Below, piece by piece: positions 5,414-61,197 of a DNA stretch of 64,000 bases (positions within the stretch are counted from its first letter, which is position 1; every line of letters starts with the position of its first letter). The DNA is taken from NCBI GenBank assembly GCA_965219345.1, contig OZ244732.1, positions 1,024,001-1,088,000 of the forward strand. The letters run 5' to 3'. The notes under the pieces were generated by a model. The model searched no databases, was not told the origin of the DNA, and worked only from the letters and a program-made list of their open reading frames with translations. Position numbers and translations under genes: made by a program. The stretch is from Nitrosopumilus sp. (lineage in GTDB: Archaea > Thermoproteota > Nitrososphaeria > Nitrososphaerales > Nitrosopumilaceae).

Positions 5414-5537
5414 GGTTCTGTGTAATCTTCGGGTGCCGATTTTCTCAAAAAAATTACTCAGCAGCCGTACTGAGTGAGGCGTTTTGGATTATGGTTTTCC
5501 ACTTGTTAACCCCATCAACCGAAGATTACACAGAACC
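5414..5537 (-). mobile_element. 124-bp MITE-like internal-deletion derivative of an IS6-family element
   Basis: Perfect 19-bp TIRs GGTTCTGTGTAATCTTCGG at 5414-5432 and 5519-5537, identical to the end at 15032. The interior encodes a transposase C-terminus VDGVNKWKTIIQNASL on the minus strand. No TSD is visible. Confidence 0.9.
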
Positions 5538-5582: not shown

Positions 5583-8015
5583 GTGAATATTAATTACAAA
5601 ACATATTGCATTGTGGCATTACTTTTTTCAGTGTCTGGAATGTCGACAATGACCGTACATGCCCAAACCAGTAATGAATTATCTATCACGTCACCATCTG
5701 ATGGTCATCTTACTTCAAACCACCAAATTACAATATCCGGTACTGCCCAAACTAACAGCCAAGTGGATGTGATGATCTTCATAACGCTAATAAATGCCCT
5801 CGGAGAGGCAGTCACTGCCCAAACTAACAGCCAAATAGTTACTGCAGACTCGCAAGGCGAGTGGAGTATTGATGCCTTACTTGCAGAAGGTGATAATATG
5901 ATCACCGTATCTAACGATGGCGCATCCGTATCTGTCACAGTTACATTGGATACTAGGCCACCAACAATTACACTACTGGGAGATGACCCGCAGATTATTG
6001 AATTGGGAGCAGGATATACTGAATTAGGAGCTACAGCTGATGATGGTTCTGAGGTTTTCTCATTATGGCAGCGTACATTTGCGGATGTGATAGGCAAACG
6101 TATCCTCATTGAATATCATGCTATGGATGAAGCCGGAAATGTTGGAGTTGCACATAGACATGTAAATGTTGTTCTCCCGGCAGTTGATATATTGCCGCCT
6201 ACTATTGTATTACCAGGATATGATAGTGTAAACAGCAGGGATAACATAGCATCCATATCCATACTGTTTCACAATTATTTTTATGACCTCAGTTATTGTG
6301 AAGATCTTCATGATGAAAATCCGGAACTTAGCTATACCATACTGGATCGCTTTACCGGCGAATATATAGATGCCATTGAATATCCCATACTTGAATACTC
6401 TTCATATATTCTATCTTATACTTGCACTGATGAATCTGGACTTGAAGCAGAACCTTGGACTAGCAGAGTCCTCTTTGTTGGACCAAGAGAAACATCTGCA
6501 TCAGAACAAAGAGAAACATCTGCATCAGAACAAAGAGAAACATCTGCATCAGAACAAAGAGAAACATCTGCATCAGAACAAAGAGAAACATCTGCATCAG
6601 AACAAAGAGAAACATCTGCATCAGAACAAAGAGAAACATCTGCATCAGAACAAAGAGAAACATCTGCATCAGAACAAAGAGAAACATCTGCATCAGAACA
6701 AAGAGAAACATCTGCATCAGAACAAAGAGAAACATCTGCATCAGAACAAAGAGAAACATCTGCATCAGAACAAAGAGAAACATCTGCATCAGAACAAAGA
6801 GAAACATCTGCATCAGAACAAAGAGAAACATCTGCACCAGAATCATCGGCTGGCAAAGCCTCCTTTGTTGGACCTAGAGAAACATCTGCATCAGAACAAA
6901 GAGAAACATCTGCATCAGAACAAAGAGAAACATCTGCATCCGAATCATCGGCTGGCAAAGCCTCCTTTGTTGGACCTAGAGAAACATCTGCATCAGAACA
7001 AAGAGAAACATCTGCACCAGACCAGTACCCACCATCTTTAGAAAATAATGATAAAAAAATGGGCGGTGGAGACAGCAATGATTGGGAGAAAAAACCAACC
7101 TTTGGCAAGTCTTTTTATACACATGCCCAAATTGTAGAGGATGGATTCTCATTTAACGGGCTAACTTTAGACATTACTGATAACTGGCACACAGACTTTG
7201 ACAAAACTAGCAGTATTATTGGTGAAACCAACCATGTTGAATTAAAAGTGTATGCTGATACAAGCCTCAGATCTGTTACTTTACAATTAGGTATTCCAGA
7301 GATTGGGCAATCACATTATGCTGAGACTGGAATCCACGTATTACTCTCAAGAAACTATACCAATCCAAATAACTATGATATTACAGATGTAATTCATGAA
7401 CAAAAAGAACCATTAATTAATGAAAAAAAATCTAGCGCATCCATAATTCCGTCAAAGTGTACCTCCAGTGATAGAAGCATGGATGAGCGCTGTCATACCA
7501 TATCATTTGACTTTACAATGATGGCACCTCTCAAATGGGATGTTGTTGCCATTAAAGCATCAGATTTTGACAGATATTCTACCACTACATTTATCAATGA
7601 AGGTGTAGAATTTACTGGAGAATCACTGCTTTCTCCTAAAACCCACACGCTGATGGAGAAAACATCAGCCCAAGAAAGACACACAGTTCTGGAATTAACA
7701 CAAATGGATAGAAGACATGCTGTGTATGAAGATCAGTTTGGTAATATTTGGGAACATAACGATTATGGAACTTGGAAAAAGGTCACACCTGATAAGATAG
7801 TCAGGGATAAAGACCCCGCTACAAATGTTATGACACGGTACCATTCATCATTTGACAGTTTAGTTTTACATGAAATTGGCAAAGCTACCAAAATATTTGA
7901 CAGTGATATGATTCAAAGCCAAGTTGGTGATAGTTTCACCTATGAGTATCCAACCGGAGATGGCTCTAGGACCATGTTTCTCAAAGAAAATAATATGATG
8001 TGGATTAGAGGCTAG
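5583..8015 (+). CDS. Secreted surface protein with Ig-like/DUF5011-like domains, RETSASEQ repeat linker and thaumarchaeal C-terminal domain
   Basis: The ORF-track start at 5484 lies inside the MITE, so GTG 5583 (behind TTTTTATA) is preferred. Signal peptide, DTRPPTITLLGDDPQIIELGAGYTELGATA motif, GGGDSNDWEKKPTFG domain. Confidence 0.8.
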   Translation: MNINYKTYCIVALLFSVSGMSTMTVHAQTSNELSITSPSDGHLTSNHQITISGTAQTNSQVDVMIFITLINALGEAVTAQTNSQIVTADSQGEWSIDALLAEGDNMITVSNDGASVSVTVTLDTRPPTITLLGDDPQIIELGAGYTELGATADDGSEVFSLWQRTFADVIGKRILIEYHAMDEAGNVGVAHRHVNVVLPAVDILPPTIVLPGYDSVNSRDNIASISILFHNYFYDLSYCEDLHDENPELSYTILDRFTGEYIDAIEYPILEYSSYILSYTCTDESGLEAEPWTSRVLFVGPRETSASEQRETSASEQRETSASEQRETSASEQRETSASEQRETSASEQRETSASEQRETSASEQRETSASEQRETSASEQRETSASEQRETSASEQRETSASEQRETSASEQRETSAPESSAGKASFVGPRETSASEQRETSASEQRETSASESSAGKASFVGPRETSASEQRETSAPDQYPPSLENNDKKMGGGDSNDWEKKPTFGKSFYTHAQIVEDGFSFNGLTLDITDNWHTDFDKTSSIIGETNHVELKVYADTSLRSVTLQLGIPEIGQSHYAETGIHVLLSRNYTNPNNYDITDVIHEQKEPLINEKKSSASIIPSKCTSSDRSMDERCHTISFDFTMMAPLKWDVVAIKASDFDRYSTTTFINEGVEFTGESLLSPKTHTLMEKTSAQERHTVLELTQMDRRHAVYEDQFGNIWEHNDYGTWKKVTPDKIVRDKDPATNVMTRYHSSFDSLVLHEIGKATKIFDSDMIQSQVGDSFTYEYPTGDGSRTMFLKENNMMWIRG
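6486..7020 (+). repeat. 24-bp coding tandem repeat AGAGAAACATCTGCATCAGAACAA (14 perfect copies plus interrupted copies)
   Basis: Direct reading; it encodes RETSASEQ in frame and has no spacers. Confidence 0.95.
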
Positions 8016-8408
8016 TTTCTACAATTATTTTTCATTTTTATTCCAAATAAATACAAGTAGCCTTACAACATATTACATCAGGGCAGGCGGATGGGATTAG
8101 ACATTATTTCTTTTGTCTAACTATCTGCAAAATAATTTTCCTCAGCTAGGCATTGCTCTTAGCGACCCGTTGAATTTCCCATATTGCCATATTAATCTAT
8201 TACAAAAAGGAAAAAAAGTTACCACCCCCAGATGGCATGATCCAATGCTTTGGACAACATGATGGTGTCAACTAAAAATTCAGGTGCCTTGCACATGGAC
8301 AGTTTTTTTAATGCATGGGATTGTATTGCTTTATTTGGCCCGGAACTTCACTCTGTCAAAACAAGAAGTCCAAAATTAACTTTTAAATCCTGAAAATATC
8401 CAGTAAGC

Positions 8409-9006: not shown

Positions 9007-9360
9007 TTATCTTGTAAAGTTCAGTGGTGGCTTGTAAGTTCCTAATAACATACATTCAGTAAAGCATCTTTCCCTGTAATTGTCTATCTTGATATATTTT
9101 ACACGATACCATTCTATTTTTTGTGATAGACTAGATCGTCTCTTTACTTTGCTGCATAGATTGCCTGTACCAATATTTAGCATATGTTCCTCACATCTTT
9201 TTTTCAATGAGTTTGTTTGGCCGATATATTGTAAAATCCCTTTTGGATCACTAATTAAATACACTCCAGGAATGTCAAAACCATCTCTATTTGCAATGTA
9301 TGATATTAGATGAGGCTTTGAATTTTCTATTATTTTTTGTATTCTATACCATGATATCAA
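9007..9360 (-). CDS. Stand-alone GIY-YIG nuclease domain protein
   Basis: PGVYLI...YIGQTNSLKKRCEEH...E......PPLN motif pattern. Confidence 0.8.
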   Translation of the reverse strand: MISWYRIQKIIENSKPHLISYIANRDGFDIPGVYLISDPKGILQYIGQTNSLKKRCEEHMLNIGTGNLCSKVKRRSSLSQKIEWYRVKYIKIDNYRERCFTECMLLGTYKPPLNFTR

Positions 9361-9500
9361 AATTATACTTTATTGGCGATTTTGTTTTAAAGTGTTGCTA
9401 ATGATGGTTCTGTGAAGTTATCGTGTGTTAGCATGAAATGCGGATCTTCTCTGAATTGAATGAAGATTATGATACCTGACTATCTGGGTTTTTGGAAATT

Positions 9501-9722
9501 TTAAATTCTTTTGGAATATTTCTCACTAAACTTGATTTCATGTTTATGCCTATTTTTGGAATGTCGGGGCTTGTGTTTTAGATATGTCTCACAACAGGGA
9601 CATTTATGATTCCCACTCCATTCCAAAAAAACATCACAACTTGGACAATATTTAGAATTCGCTGTGTCGTACTGCCGTCTTGATTTCTTATATTTGCTAC
9701 AAAATCCATCACAAGACATCAT
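9501..9722 (-). CDS. Small Cys-rich zinc-binding protein (thaumarchaeal family)
   Basis: CxxxC...CPSC...W...CPCC...L..KPR pattern, co-oriented behind the endonuclease. Confidence 0.7.
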   Translation of the reverse strand: MMSCDGFCSKYKKSRRQYDTANSKYCPSCDVFLEWSGNHKCPCCETYLKHKPRHSKNRHKHEIKFSEKYSKRI

Positions 9723-9730
9723 GCATCACA

Positions 9731-10267
9731 TTACGGTTCAATCATTATAATTTTGACAGGAACTGACGGAACAGATCTATTCAGACGTTCAATGTCATAT
9801 TCTAACTGTTCACCATAAGACACGCCACTTGACATCTCCCTCATCATGCTGTATGTTGGAACAATTTCCACACCAACATCTATTTTTCCAGCATTGTAAA
9901 AATGTTGAAATTTTGACATATCATAAAACATGAAAGCATATTTGCCAAATTGAACCTCTACGTTAACTTTGTCCTTGTTGTAATCAATTTGCTTATATGA
10001 TGATATTTCCTTGTTTTTTGATATAGGTATGGTATAGTTGAGACGTATTTCTCGGAATCGCCTACTGGAAAAATTCGCTTGAAAGCTATCGTTTAACTCT
10101 CTTGGATTATACAGTTGTTTTCCTTTTCTGTTTTTTTCTTTTGAGATTTTTGTCTTAAATGGAGATACATCTGAAATTATGTCATTTATCTCACTGTTAA
10201 TTTCAGAAAATCTAGCAGCTAATATTTCACTCCCACCCAAATGAGAATACGTCTTTTTTATTTTCAT
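9731..10267 (-). CDS. BglII/BstYI-family type II restriction endonuclease
   Basis: YSHLGG...KTKISKEK...LYNPRELN...KQIDYNKDKVNVEVQFGKYAFMFYD (PD-ExQ variant). Its ATG at 10267 overlaps the MTase stop (ATGA). Confidence 0.85.
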   Translation of the reverse strand: MKIKKTYSHLGGSEILAARFSEINSEINDIISDVSPFKTKISKEKNRKGKQLYNPRELNDSFQANFSSRRFREIRLNYTIPISKNKEISSYKQIDYNKDKVNVEVQFGKYAFMFYDMSKFQHFYNAGKIDVGVEIVPTYSMMREMSSGVSYGEQLEYDIERLNRSVPSVPVKIIMIEP

Positions 10268-11138
10268 GTTTGCATTCCGTATATTGGCCTGTTCATAGGT
10301 CTCGTTCGTAGTTTGTTTGTGGCAAGAAGCCTCAATCTGCTGCACAATATAGTAACATACTTTTGCTCTTTCTCAGAACCCAAACAATTTCTACCATGTT
10401 TCAGAGATGCGATTGCGGTAGTACCAGAGCCAATGTATGGATCATATACCATGTCTCCTTTATCAGTAAGTGCCAAGACGAGCCTCTCAACCAGTTCAAC
10501 AGGGAATTGTGCAGGATGTGAAGTTTTTTCAACATGGTTGTGTTTTACATTTGGGATTTCCCAGACATCAGATGGATTTTTTCCAAGTGGATTGCAACTT
10601 AGTTCCCCTTTTTTCTTACCTGAAAAATAATGTTTGGATGGATACTTTTGTGGAATGCGTATTGGATCAAGATTGAATGTGTAATTATCAGATTTTGTAA
10701 ACCATAATATTGTTTCATATCTGCCAGAAAGACGCTTTGAGCAATGTAATCCATGTCCAAAATGCCAAATTATCCTATTTCTTAGAAATAAATTCATGTC
10801 AGTAAAAATAGGATACAATACCATGTCCAATGGTGTGATCATTCCATTTTCTACAAAATTACCTACCTGCCAGCAGATCGAACCAGTAATTTTTAATTTC
10901 CTGACACATTCCCGTATTACTAGTTTTTGGTTTTTGATGTATTCATTCAATCCTTGTTTCTTTTCATATTCTTTGCCCAGATTGTATGGTGGTGATGTTA
11001 CAATTAATTGAATTGAATTGTTTGGTATTCTCTTAAGACAGTCTAGACAATCACCTGTGAAGATGGTGTTAGATACAGTTTGTTTGGAAGTATTCTTCCC
11101 CCCCCCTCATTCATTTTGTATTTTGTCGTTTTTTTCAT
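10264..11138 (-). pseudogene. N4/N6 DNA methyltransferase (beta class), out of frame at a G9 tract (possibly phase variable)
   Basis: GDCLDCL...LIVTSPPYN lies upstream of the ORF-track TTG start in the same frame. HPAQFPVEL and DPYIGSGTT lie downstream. ATGs at 11138, 11114 and 11110 are all out of frame across the C9 run at 11098-11106. Confidence 0.85.
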
Positions 11139-11146
11139 TGTATTAA

Positions 11147-11329
11147 TCACTCTTTCTTAGTTATCTTGGCTAACCAAGTTTTACCATCCTTATCTAATTG
11201 CCAGTTGAGATGATCTCCATCCTCTAACCCGATTTGCTGAACTACAAAAACTGGTATTGTGGTTCTCAGTGACTTGCTCTTTGATGTTGCAGGTGTGCAT
11301 ACTGTTTCTGTTCCCTCTAATCTTCCCAT
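11147..11329 (-). CDS. AbrB/MazE/SpoVT-like DNA-binding protein
   Basis: SLRTTIPVFVVQQIGLEDGDHLNW swapped-hairpin signature; divergent from the transposase. Confidence 0.8.
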   Translation of the reverse strand: MGRLEGTETVCTPATSKSKSLRTTIPVFVVQQIGLEDGDHLNWQLDKDGKTWLAKITKKE

Positions 11330-11425
11330 ATAGGTAAATTAATTTAAACATATATTAATTTACCTATATTACAGATTTACCTATATATTTACCAATATTT
11401 ATATATGCAATTAGTTTACCTATAT
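11328..11425. promoter_or_regulatory. Divergent promoter region with 5 copies of TTTACC(T/A)ATAT and TATA box TTTATATA
   Basis: Direct copies at 11359, 11376, 11388 and 11415, an inverted copy at 11328-11338, and TTTATATA at 11398-11405. Confidence 0.7.
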
Positions 11426-11426
11426 T

Positions 11427-11520
11427 ATGAATCAAAGAGAAATGAGGGCAATGATGAGACCTACGACTTCTGACTCTATGATGAGTGAGATGACCTCTGA
11501 GCCCTCATCTTTTGATTCAT
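11427..11520 (+). ncRNA. Box C/D guide sRNA-like element inside the transposon
   Basis: C ATGATGA 11451-57, 12-nt guide, D' CTGA 11470-73, C' ATGATGA 11478-84, 12-nt guide, D CTGA 11497-500. It is closed by ATGAGGGC/GCCCTCAT and ATGAATCAAA/TTTGATTCAT stems with a 3-nt K-turn bulge. Confidence 0.85.
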
Positions 11521-11584
11521 TTGATTCTATATTAATTTTCGAGGTGCAGTATGTATGAACTCCAGAACTTAAAGAGCCAAACAA

Positions 11585-12679
11585 ATGATGGAACTGCCAA
11601 ACTGCGCAGTACAGTTTAGCCCAGAAAAATTTAGCGTGAGATCACAAAGCATGCCACAAATTCACTATATCGTATCAAAGACAGATGGTGGGTTAATTTG
11701 TGATTGTCCAGATCACATCAAAAGAAAATCAGACTGCAAGCACATCAAGATAGTCTTGGAGCTAATCAGGAAAAATCAATGCAAGACTCAAGAGTTTAGA
11801 ATGATGGATAGGTCGAATTTCAATCTATGTAAATTCTGTGACTCTGGCAGACTGAAAAAGGATGGAATTAGAAAAAACAAGAAAGGTGATGTCCAGCAAT
11901 ACAAATGCCAAGACTGTAAAAAGAGATTTGTCTTGAACCTTGGATTTGAGAAAATGCGTTATGATCCTGTCTTAATCACTAGAGCTTTACAAATGTATTT
12001 TTCAGGTATGAGTATCAGGGATATTGCAGATTGCTTTGAGCAGGAAGAAATCAAAGTGTCTTATAGAGCAGTTTATGATTGGATTGACAAATATTCTCAA
12101 ATGGTTACAGATTATGTAAAAGGAATCGTGCCAAGAGTATCTGAAACATGGAGAACAGATGAAATCTTTATGAAAATTAGCGGTGTTCAAAAACTACAGT
12201 ATTCCATGCTTGACCATGAAACTAGATTTATGATTACCCAATTTGTAGCCAATACTAAAGGCACGGAAAATGTCGAGCCAATGTTTAGAGAAGCCATAAT
12301 GATTGCAGATAAAATCCCAACTACATTAATCTCTGATGGTGCAAAGAACTTTCACAAGGCTTGGAAAGATAATTACAAAGCCAAGAATCCATTATGGAAA
12401 GACACGGAACATATACGCCACATTCACATGAAAGGCGATAAAAACAATAATCGCATGGAAAGATTGAATGGGACTATCAGAGATCGTGAAGTTGCATATA
12501 GAGGAATAAAAAAGATGAATAGTCCTCTTTTTAATGGATTCCAAGCATTTTACAATTTCTCAAAAAAACATGGTGGAATTGACAAGAAAACTCCAGCAGA
12601 AAAAGCAGGTATTTTGGTTGATGGAGATAACAAATGGAAGACCTTGATTCAAAATACCTCACTTAGTCAATATCAATAA
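11585..12679 (+). CDS. IS6/IS240-type DDE transposase with N-terminal SWIM and Zn-ribbon
   Basis: CDCPDH...CKH (SWIM), CKFC...CQDC, and the triad WRTDE / LISDG / NNRMERLNGTIRDRE. An upstream in-frame ATG at 11555 with GAGGTG SD is followed by TAA at 11570. Confidence 0.9.
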   Translation: MMELPNCAVQFSPEKFSVRSQSMPQIHYIVSKTDGGLICDCPDHIKRKSDCKHIKIVLELIRKNQCKTQEFRMMDRSNFNLCKFCDSGRLKKDGIRKNKKGDVQQYKCQDCKKRFVLNLGFEKMRYDPVLITRALQMYFSGMSIRDIADCFEQEEIKVSYRAVYDWIDKYSQMVTDYVKGIVPRVSETWRTDEIFMKISGVQKLQYSMLDHETRFMITQFVANTKGTENVEPMFREAIMIADKIPTTLISDGAKNFHKAWKDNYKAKNPLWKDTEHIRHIHMKGDKNNNRMERLNGTIRDREVAYRGIKKMNSPLFNGFQAFYNFSKKHGGIDKKTPAEKAGILVDGDNKWKTLIQNTSLSQYQ

Positions 12680-12921
12680 TCATTATTTTAGGAATCTTTG
12701 TTTTAGAACTTGTAAATTTCAGGCAGATTTTTCAATCTTTAGAAGATCCGCATTTCATGCTAACACACGATAACTTCACAGAACCTAATGATTATGATGT
12801 ATGTAGAGATAGTTTTTGTGATCGCCATCGTATTATAATTTTTATTACTATAATTTGTAATGACTTTAAGAAATGTAAAAACAATTGTGTACTCTAACTT
12901 TTTTTTATTTTCATTACATAT

Positions 12922-14938: not shown

Positions 14939-15023
14939 GCAGAGATCGCCTAGTTTGGTAGGGCGTTTGACTTATGATCAAATGTTTCGCAAGGACCCGC
15001 GGGTTCAAATCCCATTCTCTGCG
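14939..15023 (+). tRNA. Atypical class II tRNA (Ser/Leu-type body) with TAT (Ile) anticodon; possibly a pseudo-tRNA
   Basis: Acceptor GCAGAGA/TCTCTGC, D arm GCCTAGTTTGGTAGGGC, anticodon arm TTTGA-CTTATGA-TCAAA, long variable arm, GGTTCAAATCC T loop, G discriminator. One T-stem mismatch. Confidence 0.75.
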
Positions 15024-15031
15024 TTTTACGA

Positions 15032-15530
15032 GGTTCTGTGTAATCTTCGGTTCATGGATCTTATTCCAAATTTTCCCTCGGAAGCGAGGCGTTTTGAATT
15101 ACTGTCCTCCACTTGTTAGGACCATCAACCTCAATCATTGAGGCCTGTGCCGGAGTCCTGCCTTTCAAGGCTCCATGCTTTTTTGTGAAATTATAGTAGA
15201 CTCTCATGCCCTCAATGACTGCGGTGTCCATTCTTTTCAAGCCTCTGAATACCTTTTCCCTGTCCCTGATTTCACCGTTCAGCCTTTCCATCTTGTTGTT
15301 GTTCATATCCCCCTTTAGGTGAATGTGTCTCACGTGGTTTGTCTTTTTTCCAAAAACTTTCTTACTTGATTTCATATATGCTGGTAATCCATCAGTAATG
15401 AAATTTTTAGGATTCTTTCCAACTTGAAGCTTGGTCATTAATAATAGATTGTCTGCATTGTGCTGAAATTTAGTACTGGCAATATCTGAAGCCAGCCAGT
15501 AACGTGTATCATCATCCATAGAGGCAAATA
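15032..15530 (-). mobile_element. Truncated IS6-family element (one TIR plus the 3' part of the transposase)
   Basis: TIR GGTTCTGTGTAATCTTCGG at 15032. The ORF contains FITDGL, NNKMERLNGEIRDRE and KWRTVIQNASL. The N-terminal half and the other TIR are missing. Confidence 0.85.
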
Positions 15531-49744: not shown

Positions 49745-50419
49745 TTATCCTCTATACTTTGCAATTACCATTGCATGATCTTTGTCATATGGATGCAAAT
49801 CTATCAACTGTAAAATATCAAAATTTGTTTTCAATTTCTCTACTTCTTCCTCAATAATTTTTTTCGGAGATTTTGTAACATCAATACTTCTTGTTTTAAT
49901 GACTAAAAAGAAGTATCCGCCATTTTTTAGAAACAAATTACAATTATCTATGGCAATTTTTGTTTGGTCAGGTTGAGCTATATCTACATAGACTACATCT
50001 ATTTTACCAAATACAGGGAAGTATTCCTTAGGTTTTCTAGCATCCTGAAGAATTGGAATGATATTTGTTCTAAGTGCTGCTACCCTATCTAAAAAATCTC
50101 TTGCAACTCTACTTGCATGTTCAACACTAAACACTATTCCACTTGGACCAACAATATCTGAAATGTGACTTACAGTTGTTCCAGTTGATGCACCAAGATA
50201 AAGAACTTTGGTTTTATTTCCAAAAGGAAATTCCCTAAGTTCATTCATTATAGATGCTGCTAATTTACTTCTAAATGGATCCCATAATCTGTACTCGATT
50301 CCTTTTTTAATGATTAGTTTTTCTTTGTATACCTGATTCCCCGGAACCAAATTTTCAGTAGCTAGTTTTTTTTCGCCTTCTGATTTAATCCAGAAAAATG
50401 ATTGGTTATCTTCTTCCAA
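49745..50419 (-). CDS. flpA: Fibrillarin-like rRNA/tRNA 2'-O-methyltransferase
   Basis: WDPFRSKLAA, LYLGASTGTTVSH and DIAQPDQ; TTG start at 50419 overlaps the nop5 end. Confidence 0.93.
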   Translation of the reverse strand: MEEDNQSFFWIKSEGEKKLATENLVPGNQVYKEKLIIKKGIEYRLWDPFRSKLAASIMNELREFPFGNKTKVLYLGASTGTTVSHISDIVGPSGIVFSVEHASRVARDFLDRVAALRTNIIPILQDARKPKEYFPVFGKIDVVYVDIAQPDQTKIAIDNCNLFLKNGGYFFLVIKTRSIDVTKSPKKIIEEEVEKLKTNFDILQLIDLHPYDKDHAMVIAKYRG

Positions 50420-51746
50420 ACTTTTTTCTCTTTTTATTTCTTGAATCTGATCTTTGTTTATAATTTCTATCATCTCTTCTTCCACCTCTATCATCTCTTC
50501 TTCCACCTCTATCATCTCTTCTTCCACCTCTATCATCTCTTCTTCCACCTCTATCATCTCTTCTTCCACCTCTATCATCGCCTCTTCTACCATCTCTCCA
50601 GAATGACTGAGGTTTTCTGAGATCTTTTTCAGTTGGATTTTCGTATTTCTTGCCTATCTCACCAACCCTTACATTGAGTTTTTCAAGTAAAGTCTCATTC
50701 AGTCCCTCTCCATAAACATCAACTCTTGCTGCAATTACCGCCTTTGCAGCAACTGCACGTGCAATTTTACCTCTTTGCCATCTTGGAGCAGAATGAACCA
50801 TTGCATGTTGGAATAACAATCCATGCTTTGGTGGTTGAGACCCTGTCTTTAATGATCTAAACAATGCTTTTTCAGCTCCTAAAACTTGTATTGTACTGGC
50901 AGGAAGTGATGCCATTTTTTTGAGACTTCCAGCTCGTCCTAAAAGTCTTGCACCAACCGCAGTTCCAAGAATTGCTGAAAGATTCGGTGCAATTGATGTC
51001 ATTTCAGATTCAACATGTTCTTCTAGTTTTTTACGTAAATCATGAAAGTCTAGAATTTGTTTTGCAATTGATTGTACTATTGCCAAATTAACATCGGAGA
51101 TATCCCCTCCCCTGCTTTTTGATGAAATTAAAAATAACATCTCAACTTTAGAATCTGGGAATCCCGCATCTTCAAAAACTTGTTTTGATAATGATTCACG
51201 TTTTCCAGCGATTACAATTTGTGCATATCCATTGATACTGTCAATAATATTATCCAATTCTGGAAAATGTAATCCATACCACTCTCTTAATCTTGAACTT
51301 AGAGCATTTGCAATTTTATCAATTTCATCTAGTGAATTAATTGCCTGAATAATATGAAGATCTGGACTTTCTGAAACTTCGGTAACTATTGATGATGATA
51401 ATCCTAAAGCAAACTCTCTAAGTTTTCCTAATGCATCTTGAGGGTTTGAAGCAAAACCTGAATCAACAATTATTTGTGGTTTTGACGATTGAACAATCTC
51501 TAATTTTGAATCATCCATTATTTGACAATCAATATTATTTTTCTTCAAAATTGCTAGAAGAGATTCATCACTAACTACAAATCCTCTTTGAACTGAAAAT
51601 AGATAATTAATCAGCTCATTTAGTTTTGCTTCCTTACTTTTTACTGCAAGATATTCTTTAACATTATTTGAGAATGAAAATGCTCTTTCAAGTTTTCCTT
51701 CATTGAAAACCGATATTCCCAATTCTGTTAAAATCACAGAATACAT
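50406..51746 (-). CDS. nop5: C/D box RNP subunit Nop5 (Nop56/58)
   Basis: LREWYGLHFPEL, PASTIQVLGAEKALF, PPKHG, RGKIAR and an RDDRGGR tail. Confidence 0.95.
   Translation of the reverse strand: MYSVILTELGISVFNEGKLERAFSFSNNVKEYLAVKSKEAKLNELINYLFSVQRGFVVSDESLLAILKKNNIDCQIMDDSKLEIVQSSKPQIIVDSGFASNPQDALGKLREFALGLSSSIVTEVSESPDLHIIQAINSLDEIDKIANALSSRLREWYGLHFPELDNIIDSINGYAQIVIAGKRESLSKQVFEDAGFPDSKVEMLFLISSKSRGGDISDVNLAIVQSIAKQILDFHDLRKKLEEHVESEMTSIAPNLSAILGTAVGARLLGRAGSLKKMASLPASTIQVLGAEKALFRSLKTGSQPPKHGLLFQHAMVHSAPRWQRGKIARAVAAKAVIAARVDVYGEGLNETLLEKLNVRVGEIGKKYENPTEKDLRKPQSFWRDGRRGDDRGGRRDDRGGRRDDRGGRRDDRGGRRDDRGGRRDDRNYKQRSDSRNKKRKKFGRR
50466..50591 (-). repeat. 21-bp coding tandem repeat (RDDRGGR), ~6 copies, in the nop5 tail
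   Basis: TCTATCATCTCTTCTTCCACC x5 plus one degenerate copy. Confidence 0.9.
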
Positions 51747-60818: not shown

Positions 60819-61197
60819 GGTTCTGTAACGTTATAGGCACCTGAGATATGGATCTTCTAAGGATTGAAAAATTTAAAATCCTTATTGGCATTGACTCAGA
60901 GAGGCATTTTGAATGATGGTCAAACTATAACCGTCTGGCAGTATTTGGGTATTTCTGCATCTAGCCCAAACGAACTATATCATACCAAGTATATATTAAA
61001 AATGATTAAACATTTGAGTTATTGTAAAAATCACATAAAGTAATTTTCAGTTTAATTGTATTATTTCATAATTAATGGTGCGGTATTGAGATTCAAGGTA
61101 ATGATAAATGGAAAACCTTAATTCAGAACGCCTGTAACCCGACTGAAAACACGAAGAATTGCGTCCCATAAATCGAACAGAATCACGTTACAGAACC
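60819..61197 (-). mobile_element. 379-bp internally deleted IS6-family element
   Basis: 13-bp TIRs GGTTCTGTAACGT at 60819-31 and 61185-97. The minus strand retains the transposase end TIIQNASLSQCQ* and a subterminal TTTTTCAATCCTTAGAAGATCC like the end of the 9406-12785 element. Confidence 0.85.

Follow-up and report, generated by a model that had tools for sequence, protein, structure and literature searches.

Most archaeal box C/D small RNA (sRNA) genes overlap the ends of open reading frames (ORFs), and overlaps with the 5′ end of an ORF are rare (7%) and depress the downstream gene (PMC7994747). The sRNAs mature from longer transcripts whatever their flanks, the boxes being sufficient, and their mobile features "remain to be discovered" (PMC7994747). 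In Pyrobaculum calidifontis, 15 copies of an sRNA resemble miniature inverted-repeat transposable elements (MITEs), and the guides of ORF-overlapping sRNAs are mostly orphan (Lui et al. 2018, PMC6009581). It is also known that L7Ae represses translation when bound to a kink-turn (K-turn) in a 5′ untranslated region (Daume et al. 2017, PMC5539422). Here, I describe a box C/D sRNA gene located in the leader of the transposase gene of an insertion sequence (IS) of the IS6 family, in a 64,000-nucleotide stretch of contig OZ244732.1 of Nitrosopumilus sp. (hereafter, the window). The sequence-only reading of this DNA knew of no C/D RNA in IS6-type DDE elements, and no description of one was found in a full-text literature search of a limited collection. 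The term sRNA does not occur in a survey of thaumarchaeal mobile elements (PMC6563490) and a survey of archaeal IS elements (PMC13343696). Coordinates are positions within the window unless a C1, L, or G label is given.

The core of the sRNA spans residues 11447-11502 of the plus strand, as read from the boxes in the sequence, from Rfam, and from a genome-wide pattern search. In the 5′ to 3′ direction, it comprises box C (ATGATGA, 11451-11457), a D′ guide of 12 residues (11458-11469), box D′ (CTGA, 11470-11473), a loop of four residues (11474-11477), box C′ (ATGATGA, 11478-11484), a D guide of 12 residues (11485-11496), and box D (CTGA, 11497-11500). The inner stem is ATGAGGGC / GCCCTCAT (GGGC/GCCC) with one added A, and the K-turn bulge between the stem and the G.A pairs is three residues long (A-A-U). 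An extended hairpin (11427-11520, plus strand) surrounds the core. Its arms, 11427-11449 on the 5′ side and 11501-11520 on the 3′ side, form 20 base pairs (bp) in the minimum free energy (MFE) fold, including an outer stem of 10 bp (11427-11436 with 11511-11520). The MFE of residues 11420-11525 is -31.9 kcal/mol, as compared with -18.6 ± 2.9 kcal/mol for 200 shuffled sequences (z = -4.6), none of which reached so low a value. Thus, the canonical architecture with four perfect boxes, 12-residue guides, and a three-residue bulge was reproduced as the sequence-only reading had described it.

An Rfam scan of residues 10800-13000 (E ≤ 10) gave 34 matches, 29 of which were C/D-box families, all located on 11439-11511. 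The top match was sR1 (RF01152; 36.9 bits, E = 3.6e-7, threshold 45), and RF00095 scored 27.2 bits against a threshold of 45. The Rfam check that had been proposed earlier was borne out as to the kind of RNA and not as to the score, since no C/D family reached its gathering score at this sRNA; this was expected because guide families are species-specific. A strict four-box pattern was found at only two sites on both strands of the 1.91-Mb genome, each of them upstream of an IS6 transposase gene. Among 401 Nitrosopumilaceae genomes, nine contain a similar pattern, at 18 sites in all, as compared with none for the reversed pattern. A chance motif is ruled out by the shuffled folds, by the genome-wide search, and by the reversed-pattern controls. 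As for the protein partners, the nop5-fibrillarin pair of the host lies at 49.7-51.7 kb as previously noted. In profile searches, fibrillarin was found at 49745-50593 (minus strand, 4.5e-88) and Nop5 at 50406-51746 (minus strand, 3.8e-68), the latter being the sole Nop-domain gene genome-wide. Two L7Ae-family loci complete the set. By every sequence criterion, that is, boxes C and D with a K-turn of three-residue bulge, boxes D′ and C′ with 12-residue guides, and a host encoding L7Ae, Nop5, and fibrillarin, the window feature is a box C/D sRNA gene.

The sRNA gene lies within a transposon of 3,380 bp (9406-12785) that has perfect 45-bp terminal inverted repeats (TIRs). The left TIR (9406-9450, plus strand), which starts with GGTTCTGT, is a 100% inverted match to the right TIR (12741-12785, minus strand), and the two are flanked by identical copies of a 7-bp target duplication, TAATGAT (9399-9405 and 12786-12792). 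Since the perfect TIRs and the target duplication enclose it, the sRNA is within a unit that was transposed as a whole. The transposase gene (11555-12679, plus strand) encodes a DDE enzyme of the IS240/IS26 type (DDE_Tnp_IS240, PF13610; 5.1e-13, 49.8 bits, cut-off 27). IS6-family elements usually make an 8-bp target duplication, and their TIRs typically begin with GGTTCTG. The window element has the latter type of TIR (left and right copies matching each other at 45 of 45 positions), and its target duplication is short, with 7 bp in place of the usual 8. Unlike a usual IS6 element, it carries about 2 kb of cargo between the left TIR and the transposase gene (a restriction-modification pair and a regulator) and an RNA gene in the leader. 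The earlier placement of the sRNA between the TIRs of an IS6-family transposon, and in the leader of the transposase gene (11427-11520 is upstream of the ATG at 11555), is correct. A SWIM-type zinc finger had been ascribed to the transposase by the sequence-only reading; the Pfam scan gave no match to it, and no search was aimed at that domain. From the ATG at 11555, there is an in-frame TAA at codon 6 (11570-11572), and a long ORF of 364 amino acids restarts at the ATG at 11585. Codon 6 is a sense codon in paralogues (CAG where read, for example in the paralogue 1009k).

It was found that the entire sRNA sequence is nested inside a 43-codon upstream ORF (uORF; 11427-11558, plus strand), whose stop codon TGA overlaps with the transposase ATG at 11555. 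A TATA-like box, TTTATATA (11398-11405, read by eye), ends 22 residues before 11427, at the distance that the sequence-only reading had given. The box is bracketed by five operator-like copies of ATTTACCTATAT within 11328-11425, four of which are direct (11358, 11375, 11387, and 11414) and one inverted (11328-11339). Between the hairpin and the transposase gene, there is a conserved leader (11521-11554, plus strand) with an A/T-rich TATA-like stretch (11526-11533) and a Shine-Dalgarno (SD)-like GAGGTG (11541-11546) located eight residues before the ATG. In related elements lacking an RNA module, the TATA box starts 29-30 residues before the transposase ATG (by eye), and in the window it starts 29 residues before the uORF ATG at 11427. 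In addition, the module opens with 16 residues that recur unchanged as the beginning of the transposase coding sequence in a module-less relative (L048); in two others (L058 and L063), 15 of them match. As judged from this sequence correspondence, the sRNA module begins where the transposase ATG was located ancestrally.

Is this arrangement common among the relatives of the window transposase? In the same genome, about 25 related loci were found (32 tblastn segments). Among the 11 loci with an intact transposase N-terminus, seven have an RNA module or its remnant directly upstream of the leader, namely three C/D sRNAs, two tRNA-like sequences, one C/D-like variant, and one remnant. The other four, including the two closest paralogues (84% amino acid identity), have no module. 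The C/D copy at C1:212636-212685 (212k) has perfect boxes and guides that differ from those of the window. The copy at C1:1717016-1717064 (1717k) has a degenerate C box (TAATGA), a stop codon in the upstream frame, and a frameshifted transposase gene. The alignment check suggested earlier came out as foreseen: among the three C/D copies of this genome, the boxes and stems are invariant and the guides are unrelated. Their transposases are only 36-39% identical to each other, and the cassette DNA is 71-72% identical.

The two tRNA-like modules at the same slot (C1:1220105-1220191, minus strand, and C1:1730533-1730619, plus strand) were annotated by ARAGORN as tRNA-Leu(CAG). Only 48-49 of 88 positions are identical to those of the host tRNA-Leu(CAG), which rules out a captured host tRNA as the slot module. 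They belong to a set of odd class-II-like tRNA-like genes that this genome holds near IS6 copies (Leu-CAG, Arg-CCT, Ile-TAT, and a 91-residue Ile-GAT, two of each, and an 87-residue Arg-TCT). The Leu-CAG, Ile-GAT, and Arg-TCT genes share 37-49 of 88-92 aligned positions with ordinary tRNAs of the same anticodon. One such gene lies in the window: the ARAGORN "tRNA-Ile(TAT)" at 14939-15023 (plus strand; 85 residues with a long variable arm) adjoins an IS6-type end (15032) and a transposase fragment (15076-15528, minus strand).

From other genomes, 80 transposase loci were gathered. One of them (L046) has a canonical four-box sRNA upstream of the transposase gene. In eight others (L023, L027, L032, L036, L045, L047, L052, and L059), a longer module of C/D-like type was recognized by eye from its C and D boxes and its terminal stem. 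Another has a tRNA-like gene (L092:2834-2920, anticodon GAA) at the C/D slot. Matching IS6-type ends enclose the module and the transposase gene in L047 (22 of 22 residues), L036 (22 of 22), and L023 (20 of 22). The ends at these other loci were located with an 8-mer search derived from coordinates; a general repeat search on three loci yielded nothing useful.

In 16 of 18 leaders, the frame that overlaps with the transposase start carries an ATG at the module's 5′ end and is uninterrupted by stops over 41-71 codons; in most cases, the two other frames stay open for 2-13 codons. Of the 16 module-bearing leaders with an ATG (the leader 1264k, which has none, was left out), 15 keep the frame free of stops over at least 40 codons, as compared with 1.13 expected from composition-shuffled sequences and 2 of 32 cases for the other frames; the single failure is the pseudogenised 1717k. 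The frame set by the two ATGs of box C contains a stop codon in 1 of 8 IS-linked family members versus 18 of 28 members outside IS elements. In the tRNA-like leaders, the uORF ATG shares a base with the start of the acceptor stem, and no stop codon interrupts the frame anywhere in the tRNA-like sequence. An SD-like 4-mer is present at positions -18 to -4 of 8 of 9 module-bearing loci versus 16 of 58 module-less loci; this count leaves out five loci that lack an in-frame ATG and those in which the match begins past residue 16. As for the RNA, 81.3% of the cells of the 20-bp stem are paired across eight IS-linked copies, as compared with 35-54% in slid controls. Apart from one compensatory change of C-G to G-C, the inner 7 bp do not vary. 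The 5′ AUG lies inside the terminal stem in the MFE folds of four of eight leaders and abuts the acceptor stem in the two tRNA-like ones. A programmed frameshift fusing the uORF to the transposase is unlikely, for the transposase frame is open only for 3-13 codons upstream in most leaders. As a separate observation, in the four type-B leaders that were folded (L023, L036, L045, and L052), the SD pairs with the conserved stretch ahead of it in a local 6-7-bp hairpin (MFE), about 10-35 residues before the transposase ATG. This SD hairpin within the uORF is what would be expected if translation of the uORF unmasks the SD.

Compared with the described systems, the locus resembles the ORF-5′-overlapping archaeal C/D sRNAs (PMC7994747, PMC6009581) in that the sRNA appears to have no private transcription unit and overlaps in sense orientation with the beginning of an ORF. 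Those sRNAs are likewise thought to need only the boxes for maturation, the 5′ overlap lowers the expression of the downstream gene (PMC7994747), and the overlapping guides are mostly orphan, 88% in Pyrobaculum. In contrast, the host gene here is a transposase gene in a mobile element, and the sRNA is wholly contained in a separate uORF whose stop codon overlaps with the real start codon. Moreover, the slot holds tRNA-like genes in sister elements, and the host is a mesophilic thaumarchaeon rather than a hyperthermophile. The Pyrobaculum MITE-like elements share with the window element C/D boxes within inverted repeats, multiple copies, variable orphan guides, and a proposed mobilisation of the sRNA. 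Those elements are non-autonomous, have degenerate C′ and D′ boxes, and have no known transposase (PMC6009581), whereas the window sRNA is canonical and its carrier is autonomous, a DDE element with defined TIRs and a target duplication. In the autoregulation of L7Ae (PMC5539422), a K-turn similarly lies near the 5′ end of an archaeal mRNA and is followed by an ORF that is led by an SD. However, that K-turn abuts or masks the SD, whereas here a complete C/D sRNA has its D box about 40 residues upstream of the SD. More precisely, the K-turn (11447-57 / 11497-11505) and the SD (11541-46) are separated by 41 residues beyond box D, so the locus is not an L7Ae K-turn operator of the known kind, and the block proposed here would act on the 5′-terminal AUG and on translational coupling. 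The dicistronic tRNA-C/D sRNAs of archaea and plants (PMC7994747) provide a case of interchangeable or adjacent modules from a common precursor. In the IS6 elements, on the other hand, a tRNA-like or a C/D module alternates at one slot before a protein gene and is kept in an open frame.

The sRNA of the window is not confined to this type of transposon. All of the 18 strict hits in the 401 genomes have in common the stem GAGGGC-N-ATGATGA...CTGA-GCCCTC. A pattern built on the family stem was found at 41 sites in 13 of 401 genomes and 3 of 27 genera (control, 0), and the family may be defined by (A/G)AGGGC - N - RTGATGA ... CTGA - GCCCT(C), the window copy being a member. Four of the strict hits are upstream of full transposase genes, two are beside C-terminal remnants, and twelve have no transposase gene within a 3-kb locus. 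One of the copies beside a remnant, in G384, is an orthologue of the window sRNA with one substitution per guide; the boxes, the 12-residue spacings, and the inner stem are all perfect in both copies. The twelve transposase-free hits occur in clusters: 11 sRNAs in 1.6 kb (L121:6579-8173 of G080), two arrays of six (L125:6043-6919 and L126:6044-6765 of G274), three sRNAs (L122:6772-7305 of G369), and others (G016). In each array, 3-11 complete C/D sRNAs recur every 130-160 bp or so; they have one stem in common and differing guides, many of which are complementary to rRNA. Those of G080 and G274 are located directly upstream of divergent actin-like (ALP/ParM/MreB-type) genes, and G274 also has a staphylococcal-nuclease homologue there. 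The gene content suggests that the arrays beside actin-like genes sit in integrated plasmid-like elements.

An IS-specific RNA is thus ruled out by the 12 of 18 strict hits that lie in arrays or clusters. So is a single capture of a chromosomal sRNA, since the family is found upstream of full IS6 transposase genes in three IS lineages of this genome and in at least two other genomes. The sequence-only reading had named this possibility as an objection: most relatives indeed lack the boxes (70 of the 80 loci), yet the presence of the family in several IS lineages does not agree with an sRNA captured once. From its sequence relationships, the window sRNA belongs to a patchy accessory sRNA family of Nitrosopumilaceae that is tied to mobile elements. 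An element of about 509 bp with IS6-type ends (L129, reverse-complemented, 7588-8096) contains an sRNA and only the last 35 or so codons of a transposase gene. It is a MITE-like deletion derivative bearing a C/D sRNA and, in keeping the sRNA, resembles the Pyrobaculum MITEs. Outside IS elements, the best-scoring C/D candidate of the Nitrosopumilus genome (C1:447055-447108, minus strand; RF00095, 41.6 bits, sub-threshold) has no family stem, and the scoring used revealed no significant target for it among the rRNAs and tRNAs.

To what are the guides complementary? For 61 distinct guides of the family, I scored the longest Watson-Crick run that covers position 5 upstream of box D or D′ against the 16S and 23S rRNA genes of the Nitrosopumilus genome (C1:1381785.. 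and C1:1383402.., respectively, whose own numbering is used for rRNA positions). A run of at least 9 residues was found for 20 of the 61 guides, as compared with none in the reversed control and a mean of 2.95 in 20 shuffles. The paired guide positions are mostly 2-11, which is the canonical register. Several sites recur, namely 905-915, 1345-1354, and 1423-1435 in the small subunit (SSU) rRNA and 2013-2022, 2063-2073, and 2541-2550 in the large subunit (LSU) rRNA. By class, runs of at least 9 residues were found in 15 of 40 guides outside IS elements and in 1 of 14 guides of canonical IS-linked copies. The D′ guide of the window copy has a run of 8 residues at SSU 1423-1430 (N+5 = 1427), a site matched by four other family guides, and its D guide has a run of 6 residues. 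Runs of 8 residues are common by chance (11.45 of 61 shuffled guides), and neither window guide attains the 9 bp or so of rRNA or tRNA complementarity that would mark a target.

Against the 16S rRNA, the 23S rRNA, and 46 tRNAs, the window guides are no better than their shuffles (fractions as good, 0.12 and 0.735), and with ungapped scoring against the same RNAs none of the six guides of this genome beat 200 shuffles. Exact complements of the window and 1717k guides occur nowhere in the genome beyond the sRNA loci; the 212k guides each have a few exact matches elsewhere, and the one-mismatch genome matches of the guides show no pattern. Among accepted sRNAs, orphan guides are no rarity (28% in Pyrobaculum; PMC7994747), and so the weak window guides lower the case for an active rRNA guide and not that for a C/D sRNA. 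As far as complementarity indicates, the family consists of rRNA guides, among which that of the window would be a weak one at most. The earlier idea of a mobile guide that reprograms host methylation therefore seems to fit the family (20 of 61 guides) and to be weak for the window copy (8 and 6 residues).

What would the uORF through the sRNA do? Judging from the sequences, I propose that the sRNA is co-transcribed with the transposase gene and that its folding competes with coupled translation of the transposase, so as to act as a brake on the transposase; I consider the chance of this to be about even. Transcription would start from the promoter between the operators, which in the module-less relatives would give rise to a leaderless transposase mRNA. 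The first 94 residues of the transcript would be the sRNA hairpin, followed by the short SD leader and the transposase ATG, and the transcript would have two mutually exclusive fates. If it folds, the 5′ AUG would be paired in the outer stem and L7Ae, Nop5, and fibrillarin would bind; the flanks would then be trimmed to free an sRNA of 55-60 residues, the start of the mRNA would be removed, and no transposase would be made. If a ribosome is already loaded on the 5′ AUG when the 3′ arm is transcribed, it would translate through the sRNA sequence, terminate, and re-initiate at the overlapping ATGA, whereby the transposase would be made. In elements with tRNA-like modules, the same effect might be achieved via cleavage by RNase P or RNase Z, which is proposed because the G of the ATG is also the first base of the acceptor stem. 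On balance, the sRNA would use the IS for its promoter and mobility and would restrain transposase synthesis.

The association of the SD with the module, the kept promoter geometry, and the open frame up to the stop/start overlap together fit a fold-or-translate transcript. The canonical IS-linked copies, in which the guides drift and the boxes are perfect, also speak for a brake of this kind. The earlier suggestion of an L7Ae-bound leader that controls transposase expression may be said to gain indirect support from an sRNA that lies inside a conserved uORF predicted to be coupled to the transposase start. There are several points that weigh against the proposed brake. The module is absent from 70 of the 80 loci of other genomes, where the operator repeats and the TATA box lie directly before the ATG. 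It is dispensable, being absent also from the two closest paralogues. A metagenome scan gave nine loci with at most 48% identity when the full length is considered, apart from a 27-residue fragment with 70%; the module was found in none of the six with an N-terminus. The internal TATA-like box (11526-11533), 29 residues before the ATG at 11555, could give an independent leaderless transposase mRNA, which would make the sRNA irrelevant in cis, and T-rich runs 3′ of the sRNA could be terminators. Because of the TAA at codon 6 of the transposase gene, a second re-initiation at 11585 would be needed, or else the gene is freshly damaged. The leaders share descent, so the count of 15 of 16 open frames overstates their independence; I estimate about 12-14 independent module bodies. 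Covariation in the outer stem is moderate, with six pairs changing on both sides, and 46 of 500 shuffles equal that. The 5′ AUG is unpaired in two of the eight MFE folds. Lastly, four of the seven guides of non-canonical IS-linked modules match rRNA over 9-10 residues, and thus a trans-acting guide role may belong to the IS-linked modules, perhaps as their main function.

The last point leads to the possibility that the sRNA is a pure passenger, a trans-acting guide for rRNA 2′-O-methylation for which the IS is only a vehicle and a promoter, with no control of the transposase. The open frame would then mean only that insertions abolishing transposase translation were lost. The canonical register and the recurrent rRNA sites of the family guides with runs of at least 9 residues at N+5 would be explained well by this, and so would the SSU site that the D′ guide of the window shares with four other family guides, the fibrillarin, Nop5, and L7Ae of the host, and the family members in arrays without a transposase gene. 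However, the window guides do no better than shuffles, among which runs of 8 residues are common. The promoter has five operator-like repeats and is beside a divergent AbrB-like gene; these suggest repression, which is ill-suited to a stoichiometric rRNA guide. Nor does survivorship explain the tRNA-like genes at the identical slot with the same open frame. A pure passenger is the main alternative to the brake and, to my judgment, rather unlikely. A less probable explanation still is that the module is a decaying relic, in which a captured family sRNA was spread in the IS6 leader cassette by recombination between IS copies and is neutral here. The higher similarity of the cassettes (71-72% of DNA) than of the transposases (36-39%) indeed indicates cassette exchange, and orphan guides would be expected of a relic, as would the state of 1717k, with its degenerate C box, in-frame stop, and frameshifted transposase gene, and the location of the G384 orthologue beside only a C-terminal remnant of a transposase gene. 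Decay is difficult to reconcile with the perfect boxes, spacings, and inner stem of the window and G384 copies despite one substitution per guide, with a frame kept open far above expectation, and with the perfect TIRs and target duplication of a young, recently active element.

Two other explanations are far less probable. The uORF might encode a functional 43-residue leader peptide, with the box C/D pattern being incidental; in favor of this, the frame is conserved as open and the peptides end alike, with an ...ILIFEV-like C-terminus. Yet the conserved residues coincide exactly with the RNA boxes, the stems, and the SD, and the intervening peptide is unrelated across module types, including the two tRNA-like bodies. 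The same RNA also occurs in non-coding tandem arrays, in which 18 of 28 members have stops in that frame, and the reversed-pattern controls were zero. This makes a functional peptide very improbable. Least of all is it likely that the RNA guides transposition in the manner of IS110 bridge RNAs or TIGR-Tas guides. Those systems (PMC11208160, PMC11213020, PMC12045711) resemble the present one in that the leader of a transposon encodes a non-coding RNA, Nop domains and C/D RNAs are evolutionarily linked, and guide units form tandem arrays; C/D-like RNAs and Nop domains have been tied to IS110 and TIGR (PMC11213020, PMC12045711). Here, too, the RNA is in the transposase leader and the family forms tandem arrays. 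In contrast, the transposase is a DDE enzyme of the IS6 type, the only Nop effector is the host nop5, and the array units of 130-160 bp are each a complete C/D sRNA. The guides of the family match rRNA and not DNA ends; the guide complements of the window have no exact genome match beyond the sRNA locus and no match to the TIRs or the target (by eye), and most relatives transpose without the RNA. The defining features of a bridge RNA or a TIGR RNA were thus not found, and this reading is close to refuted.

The remaining part of the transposon consists of genes on the minus strand, between the left TIR and the promoter region. These are a small Cys-rich ORF of 73 amino acids with no Pfam family (9501-9722), a BglII-like restriction endonuclease gene (9731-10345; Endonuc-BglII, 3.1e-22), an N4/N6 DNA methyltransferase gene (10264-11140; N6_N4_Mtase, 2.3e-47 over 10264-10950), and a gene for a small AbrB/MazE-like DNA-binding protein (11147-11329; MazE_antitoxin, 6.1e-5, 23.3 bits against a cut-off of 24.7), which is divergent from the sRNA/transposase unit. 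A three-frame translation of 10900-11146 (minus strand) revealed that the ATG of the methyltransferase gene and its body, including the SPPY motif, are in different frames, split by a homopolymer at 11098-11106 (C9 on the plus strand, G9 on the gene strand). The offset is either a phase-variable switch or a fresh frameshift. The BglII-like endonuclease gene beside it is intact. Just beyond the left TIR, there is an ORF with a GIY-YIG domain (9007-9360, minus strand, 5e-7), and the transposon was inserted 39 bp from the 5′ end of this ORF. Two pairs of inward-facing IS6-type ends, at 5414-5537 (124 bp apart) and 60819-61197 (379 bp apart), are probably MITE-like derivatives of the same IS family.

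In conclusion, the sRNA is a molecule of an ordinary kind; what is unusual, and previously undescribed, is its setting, and the uORF that passes through it is the most interesting new feature. The only precedent found is the MITE-like element in one Pyrobaculum species. With a canonical guide in a DDE transposon that has intact ends, a family seen in only 13 of 401 genomes, and many guides of that family matching conserved rRNA sites, the horizontal spread of the specificity of rRNA modification can be tested directly, and this in an environmentally important lineage of mesophilic archaea. A conserved uORF running through a C/D sRNA or a tRNA-like gene is, in turn, an unusual arrangement for the control of a transposase. 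It is tempting to speculate, although I regard it as doubtful, that the mobile elements of ammonia-oxidising archaea spread portable C/D guides to new rRNA 2′-O-methylation sites, and that IS6 elements independently domesticated C/D or tRNA-like RNAs as a fold-or-translate gate in a leaderless uORF that sets the level of transposase. If this is true, IS6 transposons and integrated elements bearing ParM/actin genes would be the vehicles, and the fibrillarin of the host would be directed to positions around 1425-1429, in the 3′-terminal region, and to the 905-915 region of the 16S rRNA and to 2066 and 2544 of the 23S rRNA, in the functional centres of the ribosome. The elements would thereby reprogram, and possibly protect, the ribosomes of their hosts.

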